Part shown: positions 1 to 5,216 of the stretch, one piece after another
Layout: each line of letters starts with the position of its first letter
Position numbering within the stretch: the stretch's first letter is position 1
Origin: a virus
Lineage: Duplodnaviria > Heunggongvirae > Uroviricota > Caudoviricetes
Direction: 5' to 3' (one strand)
DNA: 5,216 nt
IMG/VR virus record: IMGVR_UViG_2695420427_000008
Coordinates: 1 to 5,216 of that record
Made by a program: the position numbers and the translations under genes
The notes under the pieces: generated by a model
Seen by the model: the letters and a program-made list of their open reading frames with translations, nothing else
Told to the model about the DNA's origin: nothing
The model's database searches: none

Positions 1-258
1 ACTGTCGCCAGACAAATTAACCCGTACATCAAAGTCGATATACCGGAAACAACGCGCGGCGCTCTTTACTCGTTCGTTTACAACGTGGGCGCTGGCAATT
101 TCAGAACATCGACGCTTCTTCGCAAAATAAACCAGGGCTATATCAAAGGCGCATGTGACCAGCTACGTCGCTGGACATATGCTGGCGGTAAGCAATGGAA
201 AGGGCTGATGACCCGTCGTGAGATTGAGCGTGAAGTCTGTTTGTGGGGGCAGCAATGA
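1..258 (+). CDS. R: Endolysin, GH24 (T4/P22-type) phage lysozyme family, C-terminal fragment (5' end outside window)
   Basis: Frame 1 is open from position 1 to TGA at 256-258. The translation ends ...[65 protein letters not shown], which I recognise as the conserved C-terminus of lambdoid GH24 lysozymes (RrrD-like). It lies immediately upstream of Rz with an ATGA stop/start overlap. Confidence 0.85.
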
Positions 259-722
259 GCAGAGTCACCGCGATTATCTCCGCTCTGGTTATCTGCATCA
301 TCGTCCGCCTGTCATGGGCTGTTAATCATTACCGTGATAACGCCATTACCTACAAAGAGCAGCGCGACAAAAACGCAAGAGAACTGAAGCTGGCGAACGC
401 AACCATTACTGACATGCAGCAGCGCCAGCGTGATGCTGATGCACTCGATGCTAAATACACGAAGGAGTTAGCTGATGCGAAAGCTGAAAATGATGCTCTT
501 CGGCGCAAGCTTGATAATGGTGGCAGGGTGCTCGTCAAAGGAAAATGCCCTGTGCCATCCTCAGCCGAAACCTCCAGCGCCTCCGGCATGGGCAATGATG
601 CCACCGTCGAACTCTCTCCAGTTGCTGGACGAAACGTTCTCAGTATCAGATCTGGAATCATCAGCGACCAAACATCACTGAGAACGCTTCAGGAATACAT
701 CAGGACGCAATGCCTTCGATGA
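255..722 (+). CDS. Rz: Rz i-spanin (inner-membrane spanin subunit)
   Basis: 155-aa ORF starting [17 protein letters not shown], an N-terminal transmembrane segment followed by a charged coiled-coil region and a C-terminal Cys; the first ~85 residues closely resemble lambda Rz. The ORF track starts at GTG 243, but ATG 255 overlaps the endolysin stop and matches the lambda Rz N-terminus. Rz1 is nested inside in the +1 frame. Confidence 0.9.
475..681 (+). CDS. Rz1: Rz1 o-spanin (outer-membrane lipoprotein), embedded in +1 frame within Rz
   Basis: 68-aa ORF fully inside Rz. Shine-Dalgarno GAAGGAG at 461-467 lies 7 nt upstream of ATG 475. Signal peptide [19 protein letters not shown] carries a lipobox (VAGC), followed by the proline-rich stretch [11 protein letters not shown] typical of Rz1. 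Confidence 0.85.
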
Positions 723-895
723 TAGCGATAATTTTACTCATCATCCTTCACATCTGGCTCTGTAGACAGGGTGGTGCTCACTTCTGGAGTGAATCATGGT
801 TAAACATCTCATTGCTGATGCTTGATATTGAGCATCTGGCGCGCGGTAAGGGGCTGCGTTGAGATAACAGCCAGTCATTAAAAATACCTGGATTT

Positions 896-923
896 AGCCT
901 CGCATTCGCGGGGCTTTTTTATT
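896..923 (+). terminator. Probable rho-independent terminator downstream of the lysis cassette
   Basis: Stem AGCCTCGC (896-903) pairs with GCGGGGCT (908-915): 8 bp with one G-U wobble, loop ATTC, immediately followed by TTTTTTATT (915-923). It sits ~175 nt after the Rz stop. Confidence 0.5.
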
Positions 924-1232
924 GCCATTACAAAAGCCACTCCCTACAGAGTGGCTTTGATAATGGCTTATACCCTACACGGGATAACTTAACTGATATC
1001 CCTTTTAACGGATAAAGGTATTCAAGCCTGACACATCATGCGCTGTATCGTCGCCGTATTCCCGTATTAACAGAGACCGTAGCCCGACGGGGAACTCCTT
1101 CTGCGAGAGTGTGCGGGAATAATCAAAAACGATGCACACCGGGTTTTTACCGCGTTTATGGTTCGCGGGTTTGTCCCTCATGCTCGCCAGTCCTGTGCGA
1201 GGGTGGAAGAAACAGGACGTGTATTCAGGTCT

Positions 1233-1266
1233 GTGCGACCGTGGTCGCACGCATTTCTTTTATTGC
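1233..1266. promoter_or_regulatory. Perfect palindrome GTGCGACC-GT-GGTCGCAC followed by a T-rich tract; candidate operator or attenuator/terminator hairpin
   Basis: Positions 1233-1240 are the exact reverse complement of 1243-1250, followed by GCATTTCTTTTATTGC (1251-1266). It lies 13-30 nt upstream of the RBS/ATG of the small ORF at 1279. Confidence 0.4.
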
Positions 1267-1278
1267 TTTGAGGTAGAT

Positions 1279-1488
1279 ATGTCAGTTGCTGTTTTCGAGG
1301 CACTCAATGCACGTATTAACCAACTTGAAAGTAAGGTGAAGGAATACGAGCAGCGACAGGCTGAGGCAGATGAGAAGACTCAGAACGAACTTTTCCTGGA
1401 GTTTCTTGCCATCGTTCACGAACTGATGCCGTTAGTTAATCAGGCGCTGATGACAGGACTGAAGGATGGAGATTTACACAGTAGGTAA
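1279..1488 (+). CDS. Hypothetical small protein (69 aa), predicted largely helical/coiled-coil; accessory (moron-like) gene between lysis cassette and cos
   Basis: ATG 1279 is preceded by GAGG at 1270-1273 (5-nt spacing); stop TAA at 1486-1488. Product MSVAVFEALNARINQLESKVKEYEQRQAEADEKTQNELFLEFLAIVHELMPLVNQALMTGLKDGDLHSR. The ORF track's longer version from ATG 1132 has no RBS and reads across the palindrome, so the shorter start is preferred. No homolog recognised with confidence. Confidence 0.55.
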   Translation: MSVAVFEALNARINQLESKVKEYEQRQAEADEKTQNELFLEFLAIVHELMPLVNQALMTGLKDGDLHSR

Positions 1489-1537
1489 ACCTGATCTTCT
1501 GTCTTACGGGTCCTTTCCGGTGATCCGGAGCGTTACG

Positions 1538-1549
1538 GGGCGGAAGGCG
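1538..1549. other. cosN: cosN core (position of the 12-nt cohesive end); sequence here is GGGCGGAAGGCG
   Basis: Located by alignment to the lambda junction ...GTTACG | GGGCGGCGACCT | CGCGGGTTTTCGC. The window reads ...GTTACG GGGCGGAAGGCG CGCGGGTTTTCGC: same length, first 6 nt identical, last 6 nt differ (AAGGCG vs CGACCT as I recall lambda). Confidence 0.6.
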
Positions 1550-1589
1550 CGCGGGTTTTCGCTATTTATGAAAATTTTCCGGTTTAAGG

Positions 1590-1607
1590 CGTTTCCGTTC
1601 TTCTTCG
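1590..1607 (+). repeat. cosB R-element-like terminase small-subunit binding repeat (R3-like)
   Basis: CGTTTCCGTTCTTCTTCG matches the R-element motif family (CGTTTCC...) of lambda cosB and is related to the repeat at 1690-1701. Confidence 0.55.
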
Positions 1608-1646
1608 CCGTAACTTAATGTTTTTATTTAAAACACCCCCTGAAAA

Positions 1647-1701
1647 GAAAGGAAACGACAGATGCTGAAAACGGGCTTTTTGGCCTCTGTCGTTTCCTTT
1701 C
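1647..1701. repeat. 15-bp perfect inverted repeat (GAAAGGAAACGACAG / CTGTCGTTTCCTTTC) separated by 25 bp: cosB R-elements in opposite orientation
   Basis: 1647-1661 is the exact reverse complement of 1687-1701. The spacer contains GGGCTTTTTGGCC. The same architecture is present in lambda cosB, where gpNu1 binds. Confidence 0.7.
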
Positions 1702-1726
1702 TCTGTTTTTGTCCGTGGAATGAACA

Positions 1727-2246
1727 ATGGAAGTCAACAAAAAGCAGCTGGCTGATATTTTCGGTGCGAGTATCCGTACCATTCAGAACTGGCAGGAGCA
1801 GGGAATGCCCGTTCTGCGAGGCGGTGGAAAGGGTAATGAGGTGCTTTATGACTCTGCCGCCGTCATAAAATGGTATGCCGAAAGGGATGCTGAAATTGAG
1901 AACGAAAAGCTGCGCCGGGAAGTTGAAGAACTGCGGCAGGCCAGCGAGACAGATCTCCAGCCAGGGACTATTGAGTACGAACGCCATCGACTTACGCGTG
2001 CGCAGGCCGACGCACAGGAGCTGAAAAATGCCAGAGACTCCGCTGAAGTGGTGGAAACCGCATTCTGTACTTTCGTGCTGTCGCGGATCGCAGGTGAAAT
2101 TGCCAGTATTCTCGACGGGATCCCCCTGTCGGTGCAGCGGCGTTTTCCGGAACTGGAAAACCGACATGTTGATTTCCTGAAACGGGATATCATCAAAGCC
2201 ATGAACAAAGCAGCCGCGCTGGATGAACTGATACCGGGGTTGCTGA

Positions 2247-2272
<26 letters not shown>
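1727..2272 (+). CDS. nu1: Terminase small subunit gpNu1
   Basis: 181-aa ORF MEVNKKQLADIFGASIRTIQNWQEQGMPVLRGGGKGNEVLYDSAAVIKWYAER..., near-identical to lambda gpNu1 as I recall it (N-terminal winged HTH that binds cosB). Same length as lambda Nu1 (546 nt). Confidence 0.97.

Positions 2273-5216
<2,944 letters not shown>

Follow-up and report, generated by a model that had tools for sequence, protein, structure and literature searches.

A compact mosaic segment between the lysis genes and cos of a lambdoid phage, and the probable structured RNA within it

The DNA analysed here, which we call the window, is a stretch of 5,216 nucleotides (nt) from a phage of the class Caudoviricetes (positions 1 to 5,216 of IMG/VR record IMGVR_UViG_2695420427_000008). 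In lambdoid phages a variable moron stretch lies between the lysis cassette and cos, and positions 723–1505 of the window are a compact form of it. A first-pass annotation made from the letters alone had described these positions as a short, non-lambda accessory segment joined to lambda sequence near 1505, and had assigned any accessory function either to a single small open reading frame (ORF) or to RNA or regulatory elements. The feature that is worth following up is a conserved pseudoknotted RNA at 1040–1218, which is absent from Rfam and of which both Shiga toxin (Stx) phages and lambda carry copies. From left to right, the window contains the following features.

Window start: 3' end of the endolysin gene, which opens the window and is followed by Rz/Rz1.
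255–722, plus strand: Rz spanin gene, the left border of the segment, taken from the ORF list.
475–681: Rz1, embedded in Rz.
710–862, plus strand: ORF50, a membrane ORF of 50 amino acids that begins within the end of Rz; the N-terminus of its product is a hydrophobic helix.
896–915, plus strand: hairpin T1, AGCCTCGC-ATTC-GCGGGGCT followed by the U-tract TTTTTATT, intrinsic-terminator-like, from a terminator scan.
936–955, both strands: hairpin T2, GCCACTC-CCTACA-GAGTGGC with A-run and T-run flanks, terminator-like, read from the sequence.
1040–1218, plus strand: the probable structured RNA motif, conserved, about 180 nt, defined by consensus fold, pair counts, strand test and covariance model.
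1232–1251, plus strand: hairpin T3, TGTGCGAC-CGTG-GTCGCACG followed by CATTTCTTTTATT, terminator-like, from the terminator scan.
1279–1488, plus strand: orf69, 69 amino acids, a predicted two-helix hairpin, with a GAGG Shine-Dalgarno sequence at 1270–1273.
1504–1549, plus strand: cosQ and cosN, the start of lambda homology; the cohesive-end sequence of cosN is 1538–1549.
1727–2272: Nu1, the packaging gene downstream of cos.
2247–4172: A, followed by W (4169–4375); the window ends inside B.

The modules of the segment are therefore ordered as ORF50 with T1, T2, the 1040–1218 element, T3, and orf69 abutting cosQ. The expectation of a single small ORF did not hold, as there are two ORFs with coding signatures (710–862 and 1279–1488), three terminator-like hairpins and an RNA element of about 180 nt. 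The guess that a function might lie in RNA or regulatory elements turned out well; 1040–1218 is a conserved, structured, non-coding element.

The relationship to lambda was established by BLASTN against a reference in which the right end of lambda was joined to its left end. Window positions 1504–5216 form a single 3,714-bp match of 98.2% identity, with window 1504 corresponding to lambda 48469. In a base-by-base alignment, identity begins at TTACGGGTCC and the sequence directly 5' of this point is unrelated to lambda, which places the breakpoint at 1503/1504, two bases from the position of 1505/1506 first proposed; no continuous lambda homology runs across 723–1505. The cosQ sequence GGGTCCT, which we take to occupy lambda bp 48473–48479, would then fall at window 1508–1514, four bases to the right of the junction. 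The segment is also shorter than its lambda counterpart, as had been supposed: from the Rz stop to the cosN nick (1537/1538) there are 815 bp here versus 2,075 bp in lambda (46427 to 48502). Neither bor, lambdap78 nor lambdap79 was found in the window by BLASTN, or by tblastn in the case of bor and DUF1398, and ylcI is also lacking. The description of the segment as non-lambda is correct for these genes but not for 1040–1218, of which lambda has a diverged copy; any relation to lambda 46428–48468 is limited to this motif region of the window. To the left of the segment, Rz is itself lambda-like by BLASTN in its 5' part only (255–502, 93% identical to lambda Rz). The 3' half, which holds most of Rz1, does not match lambda and instead resembles mEp460 and 2B8.

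Coverage of at least 80% was reached for 723–1505 in none of 50,697 phage records, and for 600–1800 in none of 5,426 complete Escherichia coli genomes. The proposal of a short mosaic accessory stretch is supported. The database search for its source returned different relatives for the two sides. Window 256–1218 is 94.5% identical to phage mEp460, window 700–1218 is 97% identical to mEp460 and to Ayreon, and window 700–1251 is 96% identical to E. coli AR_0089; window 1011/1040–5216 is found at 97–98% identity in three E. coli prophages. A later crossover at about 1218–1260 accounts for a left part like mEp460, Ayreon and AR_0089 and a right part like RL465 and 09A19CPO009. The block 1040–1571 is contiguous at 96–98% identity in ten E. 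coli genomes, and in Citrobacter freundii prophages it is one unbroken block of 87–88% identity that spans orf69, cosQ and cosN. The 1504 junction is therefore old in this lineage rather than the product of a recent event, and it is seen as a junction only when the comparison is with lambda or with most other lambdoid phages. Junctions at the left edge of cosQ are recurrent, with at least three unrelated upstream classes meeting the conserved cos at one point, just 5' of CGGGTCC; the sequence to the left of cosQ is ...ATGATAAYCATTATCA-TTTTG in most phages and the end of orf69 in the class to which the window belongs. Further recurrent breakpoints lie at 923/924, 1039/1040, 1217/1218 and 1251. 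A mosaic junction alone is ordinary lambdoid-phage biology.

One record related to the right part carries a different label. NZ_LT906558.1 ('plasmid III' of E. coli RL465, a linear record of 61.5 kb) is 100% identical to window 1236–1510 and carries a complete lambdoid late region with lysis genes, orf69, cos, terminase and portal. Despite its plasmid label, this record probably represents either the genome of a phage or a phage-plasmid.

In 91 unique copies of the central element, conservation begins abruptly at 1039/1040 and ends at 1217/1218, regardless of what flanks it. Variable sites are distributed over the three positions of a codon as 29/36/33, that is, without codon periodicity, and reading frames are broken by 1- and 2-base insertions or deletions at 1144–1145 and by larger ones in the helices P3a and P4 described below. 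The element is non-coding. Three candidate coding readings were rejected for the same lack of periodicity and the same frame-breaking changes: a minus-strand ORF of 81 amino acids (1005–1250), a plus-strand ORF beginning at 1132, and a 10-codon ORF beginning at 1038, whose start codon is also missing from the Citrobacter copies. ORFs have nevertheless been called across the motif by PGAP, in the mEp460 record (mEp460_059) and in the phage 24B record (vb_24B_26), and these calls are suggested to be mis-calls by the insertions, deletions and absent periodicity. The PGAP call is a hypothetical protein of 102 amino acids, and the positions concerned by these calls are window 1132–1488 and 1180–1488, locus L007 (3409–3657) and locus L207 (2492–2737). 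The true start of orf69 in the window is likely to be the ATG at 1279.

The element does not correspond to any RNA family that we could find. A cmscan of the whole window against Rfam 15 with E values up to 1 gave no match overlapping 1040–1218; the weak matches elsewhere (MIR6024, STnc560 and AbsR28) scored 21–24 bits against gathering scores of 50–72. ARAGORN detected no tRNA or tmRNA. Literature searches by sequence string, gene names and topic found no description of the motif, within a coverage that is incomplete and leaves room for a prior description.

The proposed fold comprises two domains and a pseudoknot, all on the plus strand.

Domain 1: P1, 1045–1051 with 1129–1135; P2, 1057–1067 with 1111–1121 plus 1070–71 with 1109–10.
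Domain 1, continued: P3, 1078–1082 with 1101–1105; P3a, 1083–1085 with 1090–1092.
Domain 2: GGG/CCC, 1141–1143 with 1175–1177, enclosing P4, 1150–1154 with 1164–1168.
H-type pseudoknot: S1, 1183–1187 with 1197–1201; S2 (P5), 1190–1196 with 1212–1218.

This fold was derived from an alignment of 43 variants, no two of which are more than 95.5% identical. RNAalifold gives a nested plus-strand structure of −40 kcal/mol and, in a local run, −32 kcal/mol for the plus strand versus −16 for the minus strand; the GGG/CCC pairing around P4, the longer form of P4 and the H-type pseudoknot were proposed by eye after the RNAalifold run. Standard pairs account for 97.5% of the 2,061 cells of this alignment, and 11 pairs are changed on both sides versus 4.2±1.0 in shuffled alignments. 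None of the five measures used was reached in any of 500 shuffles, and controls in which the pairing was slid along the alignment pair in only 33–64% of cells. In the S1 stem of the pseudoknot, where 98.1% of cells pair, covariation is seen at three of the five pairs (GU24/CG15/AU1/UG1; UA25/UG10/CG7; CG38/AU2/UG1), and S2 is 96.0–96.7% paired with two covarying pairs. The strand order S1a-S2a-S1b-S2b, the short loop 1 (2 nt), the absence of a loop 2 (0 nt), a loop 3 of sufficient length to span S1 and the support for both stems are those of an H-type pseudoknot, and the 10-nt, purine-rich loop 3 (1202–1211) contains an invariant GGAAGAA. A further loop–loop pairing, GGAAG (1205–1209) with CUUCU (1099–1103), was dropped, as a second sequence class does not keep it.

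More divergent copies of the 933W type (75–78% identical) were aligned by a covariance model that did not include the pseudoknot. With these copies added, the number of covarying pairs rises to 15 versus 5.6±1.5 in shuffles, and S1 is still 96.7% paired. P4 occurs in four different sequence versions, all of which pair, and P3a is either replaced (CCC/GGG by CCAG/CUGG) or deleted in the divergent copies while P3 still closes. The unpaired stretches AAUCAAAAAC, CACACCGGG and GGAAGAA are invariant and thus as conserved as the stems.

The same alignment indicates the strand. There are 216 G·U cells versus 13 A·C cells; at the level of pairs, 26 are polymorphic to G·U versus 8 to A·C (p=0.003), and 97.5% of cells pair on the plus strand versus 87.7% on the minus strand. 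The large excess of G·U over A·C places the fold on the sense strand of the late operon. These data also bear on the idea that conservation acts at the level of DNA, with the motif serving as a single-strand initiation or primosome-assembly site, some other structure of single-stranded DNA, or a recombination linker, and with the RNA-like signals being incidental. The recurrent breakpoints exactly at the motif edges (1039/1040 and 1217/1218) and the standing of the motif among the most conserved sequences of an otherwise mosaic region would fit such a role, and G·T wobble is possible in single-stranded DNA. A recombination linker, however, does not predict compensatory double changes, the replacement of whole helices or an asymmetry of 216 to 13 between the strands; H-type pseudoknots with a purine-rich loop 3 are typical of RNA, and the sense strand is always that of late transcription. 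We regard a DNA-level explanation as most improbable.

With these pairing, covariation and strand data, our interpretation is that 1040–1218 is very probably a real structured RNA motif of the plus strand. Several observations weigh against this interpretation or against a function that could be built upon it. The folding energy of the single sequence is ordinary (z = −0.45 on the plus strand and 0.03 on the minus strand), and 65 of 200 shuffled sequences fold as well as the native plus strand, in a test that does not see the pseudoknot. Diversity is low, with an effective sequence number of 1.43 in the covariance model and matches mostly from lambdoid phages of Escherichia and Citrobacter, so that many cells share ancestry; moreover, the nested structure was derived from the alignment that was then used to count pairs. 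The lambda copy is degenerate in the pseudoknot and P4, indicating that the element may be dispensable, at least in lambda. The gene that follows the motif varies (antisense ylcI or DUF1398, orf69, HNH, cos or terS), which excludes a classical leader of a single gene, and position is the only thing that links the motif to the packaging genes. Finally, the Q-modified polymerase already ignores terminators, leaving no obvious need for a further antitermination device.

The motif is present in 438 of 50,697 phage records, nearly at full length in 390 of them. Almost all of the records belong to phages of Escherichia or Shigella or to Stx phages; a few come from Salmonella. Its exact pattern occurs in at least 120 IMG/VR contigs, and Citrobacter prophages carry it as well. 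A species-level scan of genome contigs for the pattern gave real matches in Escherichia only, the rest being chance matches or lambda-contaminated assemblies, so that the diversity of the copies was not increased by it. The lambda copy itself turns up, as an identical 75-nt pattern match, in many short contigs (often about 3.5 kb, some labelled as plasmids) from assemblies of Cohnella, Flavobacterium, Pedobacter, Polaromonas, Arcanobacterium and Brevibacillus, among others (for example loci L147, L150, L154, L159, L173, L176, L177, L180, L181, L186, L189 and L199). Such contigs look like contamination of public assemblies by lambda control DNA.

In lambda, BLAST aligns window 1039–1146 with 46868–46974 at 82% identity, and the covariance model extends the match to a full-length, diverged copy at 46863–47044, between bor and lambdap78 (118 bits, E about 1e-38). 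Domain 1 is intact in this copy, and P4 and the pseudoknot are degenerate, with 35 of 49 pairs retained. E. coli K-12 has a full copy of the lambda type in DLP12, between borD and ybcV (124 bits), and a remnant consisting mainly of the P5 hairpin in Qin, between ydfO and gnsB (16.9 bits; locus L019, 5456–5619, minus strand). The Qin remnant is oriented with the Qin late operon.

The orientation of the motif was determined in 127 loci and is always that of the upstream Rz and the downstream Nu1/A. Its upstream neighbours vary and include Rz, ORF50, Rha, a KilA-N/HK620p39-like gene and antisense bor. In many lambda-type phages the motif ends about 30 nt before cosQ, and in those of the 933W type the distance to terS is 114 nt; in Stx2-1717, what follows is an HNH gene and a terS of the HK97 type. 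No other part of the segment is common to phages of the lambda, HK97 and 933W types, and in every case the motif has the lysis genes on one side and the packaging genes on the other.

A sigma-70-like site placed to initiate at the 5' edge of the motif was found in 0 of 76 upstream contexts, by a consensus scan that can miss weak promoters, and a plus-strand terminator follows the motif in 15 of the 127 loci. For lack of such a promoter-like site, we propose that the motif would be made only as part of the Q-antiterminated late transcript from pR'. It could instead be cut from that transcript, or made from an unrecognised promoter, to give a stable non-coding RNA acting in trans as a base-pairing small RNA (sRNA), as a mimic, or as a protein sponge or decoy whose target might be a host nuclease or a defence system. 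The element is a discrete unit, conserved up to a sharp edge at its 5' and its 3' end in any flanking context, its conserved single-stranded purine-rich runs (GGAAGAA and AAUCAAAAAC) could bind Hfq-like proteins or targets, and a terminator-like hairpin follows it in the class of the window. Moron regions are, in addition, known homes of prophage sRNAs (PMC4104026; 10.64898/2026.05.13.724894). Against a trans-acting RNA stand the empty promoter scan, the small share of loci with a terminator, the lack of any match to the known prophage sRNA families in Rfam, and the one Hfq CRAC peak that was mapped (EcOnc04), which is located elsewhere, between Q and the holin gene. We consider this possibility unlikely.

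Under our preferred reading, the motif would act in cis, by binding a protein or small ligand or by directing RNA processing. The invariant unpaired stretches argue that something specific is recognised, be it a protein, a ligand or a tertiary contact, and not for a simple stability hairpin. Its position suggests the downstream packaging and head-gene message as the target, with an effect likely on the expression or stability of that message. That the motif serves the late transcript in cis, as a domain for recognition or for processing, is a tentative proposal, to which we give somewhat less than an even chance.

A more specific form of processing would be a self-cleaving ribozyme or a dedicated RNase site that splits the 25-kb late transcript into a lysis part and a morphogenesis part. 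Phage genes commonly have small ribozymes nearby, and a pseudoknotted fold with invariant unpaired nucleotides, sitting exactly at the junction of lysis and packaging genes in three terminase lineages, is what such a device might look like. The motif is larger than most small ribozymes, however, and matches no Rfam ribozyme family at E values up to 1, and simple hairpins suffice for RNase III or RNase E. On this evidence a ribozyme or dedicated processing site is very unlikely.

The hairpins of the segment raise another possibility that would apply to the class of the window only. T1 is annotated as a terminator in phage Ayreon. The stem of T2 is kept through compensatory changes in 2B8 and Stx2-1717 (GCCCATC...GGTGGGC), and window position 924, beside T2, is the recurrent homology boundary at 923/924. 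The variable slot before cosQ is bounded on its left by T3, of which compensatory variants are seen in 2B8 and Citrobacter. This hairpin is nearly palindromic, and it is repeated at several module borders in the RL465 replicon (4777–4797 and 1744–1763). The 8-nt sequence CUGUGCGA is present twice, in the pseudoknot junction (1193–1200) and in the 5' arm of T3, and an alternative helix of 1194–1200 with 1245–1251 is nearly isoenergetic (−21.4 versus −23.0 kcal/mol). The motif and T3 could thus form a riboswitch-like unit, in which the pseudoknot chooses between T3 and this anti-terminator and so controls orf69 and read-through into cos and Nu1. The order of an aptamer-like fold with conserved unpaired bases, a hairpin with a U-tract, a Shine-Dalgarno sequence and orf69 is consistent with such a unit, as are the repeated 8-nt sequence and the similar energies of the two helices. 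Yet T3 follows the motif in only 15 of the 127 loci and is a repeated, movable hairpin that occurs elsewhere in the RL465 replicon; the alternative pairing is weaker in the Citrobacter versions, the downstream neighbour varies, gene association suggests no ligand, and a Q-modified polymerase should ignore T3. We therefore regard this unit as highly unlikely.

The accessory function could also lie in the two small proteins, with ORF50 acting as a membrane protein with the lysis system, orf69 acting at cos and packaging or in lysogenic conversion, and the motif contributing nothing in this phage. ORF50 matches phrog_11822 over its full length (positions 1–50 of 50, E 4.5e-35) and is annotated as mEp460_058 and also in Ayreon. 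It is intact in 26 copies, in which differences fall on the three codon positions as 15/10/31, a third-position excess. In orf69, five bases separate the GAGG from the ATG, and the distance from the stop to the junction with lambda homology is 15 nt. The gene is rare (10 of 5,426 E. coli genomes; seven clusters at 90% identity), and an exhaustive profile hidden Markov model search covering 1.8 billion representatives yielded one true 50%-identity cluster. All 12 copies are intact, including Citrobacter alleles of the same 69 amino acids that are 87–90% identical; between the genera, six codon changes are synonymous versus seven to nine that are non-synonymous, a weak coding signal. In every case orf69 is directly upstream of cos/Nu1, behind very different lysis cassettes.

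A weak match connects orf69 to phrog_2571 (E 1.3e-6, covering only profile positions 12–57 of 291). In AR_0089, the slot between T3 and cosQ holds an ORF of 104 amino acids that matches phrog_2571 at E 1.8e-60, and orf69 is 31–45% identical to members of this family, with which it shares the motif QNELxxEFxxIVxELMPxVNxxLMT. We take orf69 to be one allele of a small family of phrog_2571 relatives that fills the T3–cosQ slot. AlphaFold predicts helices at residues 3–27 and 32–68 (pLDDT 77). A fold search returned generic or designed helical hairpins only, none at E ≤ 0.001, and a Pfam search gave only sub-threshold coiled-coil noise. Neither phrog_11822 nor phrog_2571 has an assigned function among the PHROG families.

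That both ORFs are intact in all copies with coding-type substitution patterns, and that orf69 and its relatives always take the last position before cosQ, favours a function for the proteins. Both families are small, unannotated and patchy, however, as the count of 10 in 5,426 E. coli genomes illustrates for orf69. The relatives of orf69 vary in length and look partly decayed, its fold search found nothing beyond generic hairpins, and neither ORF comes close to the wide distribution of the RNA motif. An account that rests on the proteins and leaves the motif without a role is distinctly unlikely, and we infer that the two small ORFs are ordinary passengers of the late operon.

Comparison with known systems helps to place the segment and the motif. 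The region between Rz and cos of lambda (bor, lambdap78/DUF1398, lambdap79) and of the prophages DLP12 and Qin occupies the same late-operon position, as a variable moron stretch between Rz and cosQ, and in lambda and DLP12 it includes a copy of the motif between bor and the DUF1398 gene. The window differs from lambda in lacking bor, DUF1398, ylcI and lambdap79 and in having ORF50 and orf69, and in lambda the motif has diverged at domain 2 and the pseudoknot. The put RNAs of HK022 and other processive-antitermination RNAs resemble the motif in being phage-encoded, structured and produced in cis inside a lambdoid operon. The put elements, a pair of stem-loops immediately 3' of the early promoters, take the place of N, whereas the motif belongs to the late operon of phages with a Q gene and is distant from pR'. 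The pseudoknot of the T4 gene 32 mRNA, ribosomal-protein leaders and pseudoknotted riboswitch aptamers share its H-type geometry, conserved unpaired nucleotides and location upstream of an operon segment. The motif, in contrast, has neither a family match nor a conserved downstream gene; the likeness is one of possible working rather than of membership.

Several non-coding RNAs are encoded in the variable regions of lambdoid late and early operons, among them AgvB, AsxR, Esr41, STnc100/PasD, IsrK, DicF and StxS (PMC4104026; 10.64898/2026.05.13.724894; PMC7547250). The known prophage sRNAs are 50–100 nt long, have their own promoter and terminator and lie mostly between Q/pR' and the lysis genes. 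The motif, by comparison, is about 180 nt long, pseudoknotted, without a detected promoter, downstream of Rz and without a match in Rfam 15. Identity with the Pas sRNAs or with the EcOnc, AgvB and AsxR sRNAs was rejected, as those lie near Q and the holin gene; identity with EcOnc04, an Hfq-bound RNA of about 222 nt with prophage homologues, was rejected because it maps upstream of ECs_2189, between Q and holin.

To the right of the segment, cosQ and cosB are identical or nearly so to those of lambda, and the 12-nt cohesive-end sequence of cosN is GGGCGGAAGGCG versus GGGCGGCGACCT in lambda, a difference at 5 of 12 bases. The left flank of cosN (in the region of window 1528–1549) reads GGAGC versus GACAG in lambda, and the terminase is otherwise 98% lambda-like. 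This cosN variant is present in 9 of the 61 unique cos sequences compared. A link between the variant and orf69 was rejected, since orf69-bearing Citrobacter phages have GGGCGG(C/G)GACCT and AR_0089 has the variant without orf69. The variant bears on which lambdoid phages can share cohesive ends. In most lambdoid phages a conserved palindrome, TGATAAYCATTATCA, lies about 5 nt upstream of cosQ (lambda about 48445–48465). It is absent from the class of the window, where the 3' end of orf69 takes its place, and so seems not to be essential for cos function there.

Taken together, the observation of the first-pass annotation is confirmed and its interpretation partly supported. The overall explanation that we favour, with even chances of its being correct, is a mosaic segment whose RNA motif works in cis within the late transcript. 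Crossovers would recur at the sharp edges that the motif and cosQ have, which would explain the mosaic pattern that was noticed at the outset.

If the motif is functional, there would be a step of RNA-level control or processing in the late expression of the best-studied phage family. It may even be a functional RNA of the lambda family that has so far gone unrecognised, either a riboregulator that senses a ligand or a protein or an RNA that processes itself, and that controls the timing or amount of the terminase and head message, a possibility that we consider doubtful. If true, it would mean that a regulatory layer in lambdoid late expression has been missed for decades, because the lambda copy is partly degenerate and lies among dispensable morons. 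Since the stx genes share the late transcript, RNA-level control or processing in a functional motif would also be relevant to the production of Shiga toxin phages. Recognition of the motif would, in addition, correct the mis-annotated ORFs that several records list as a hypothetical protein, and would account for the clustering of recombination junctions at its edges.

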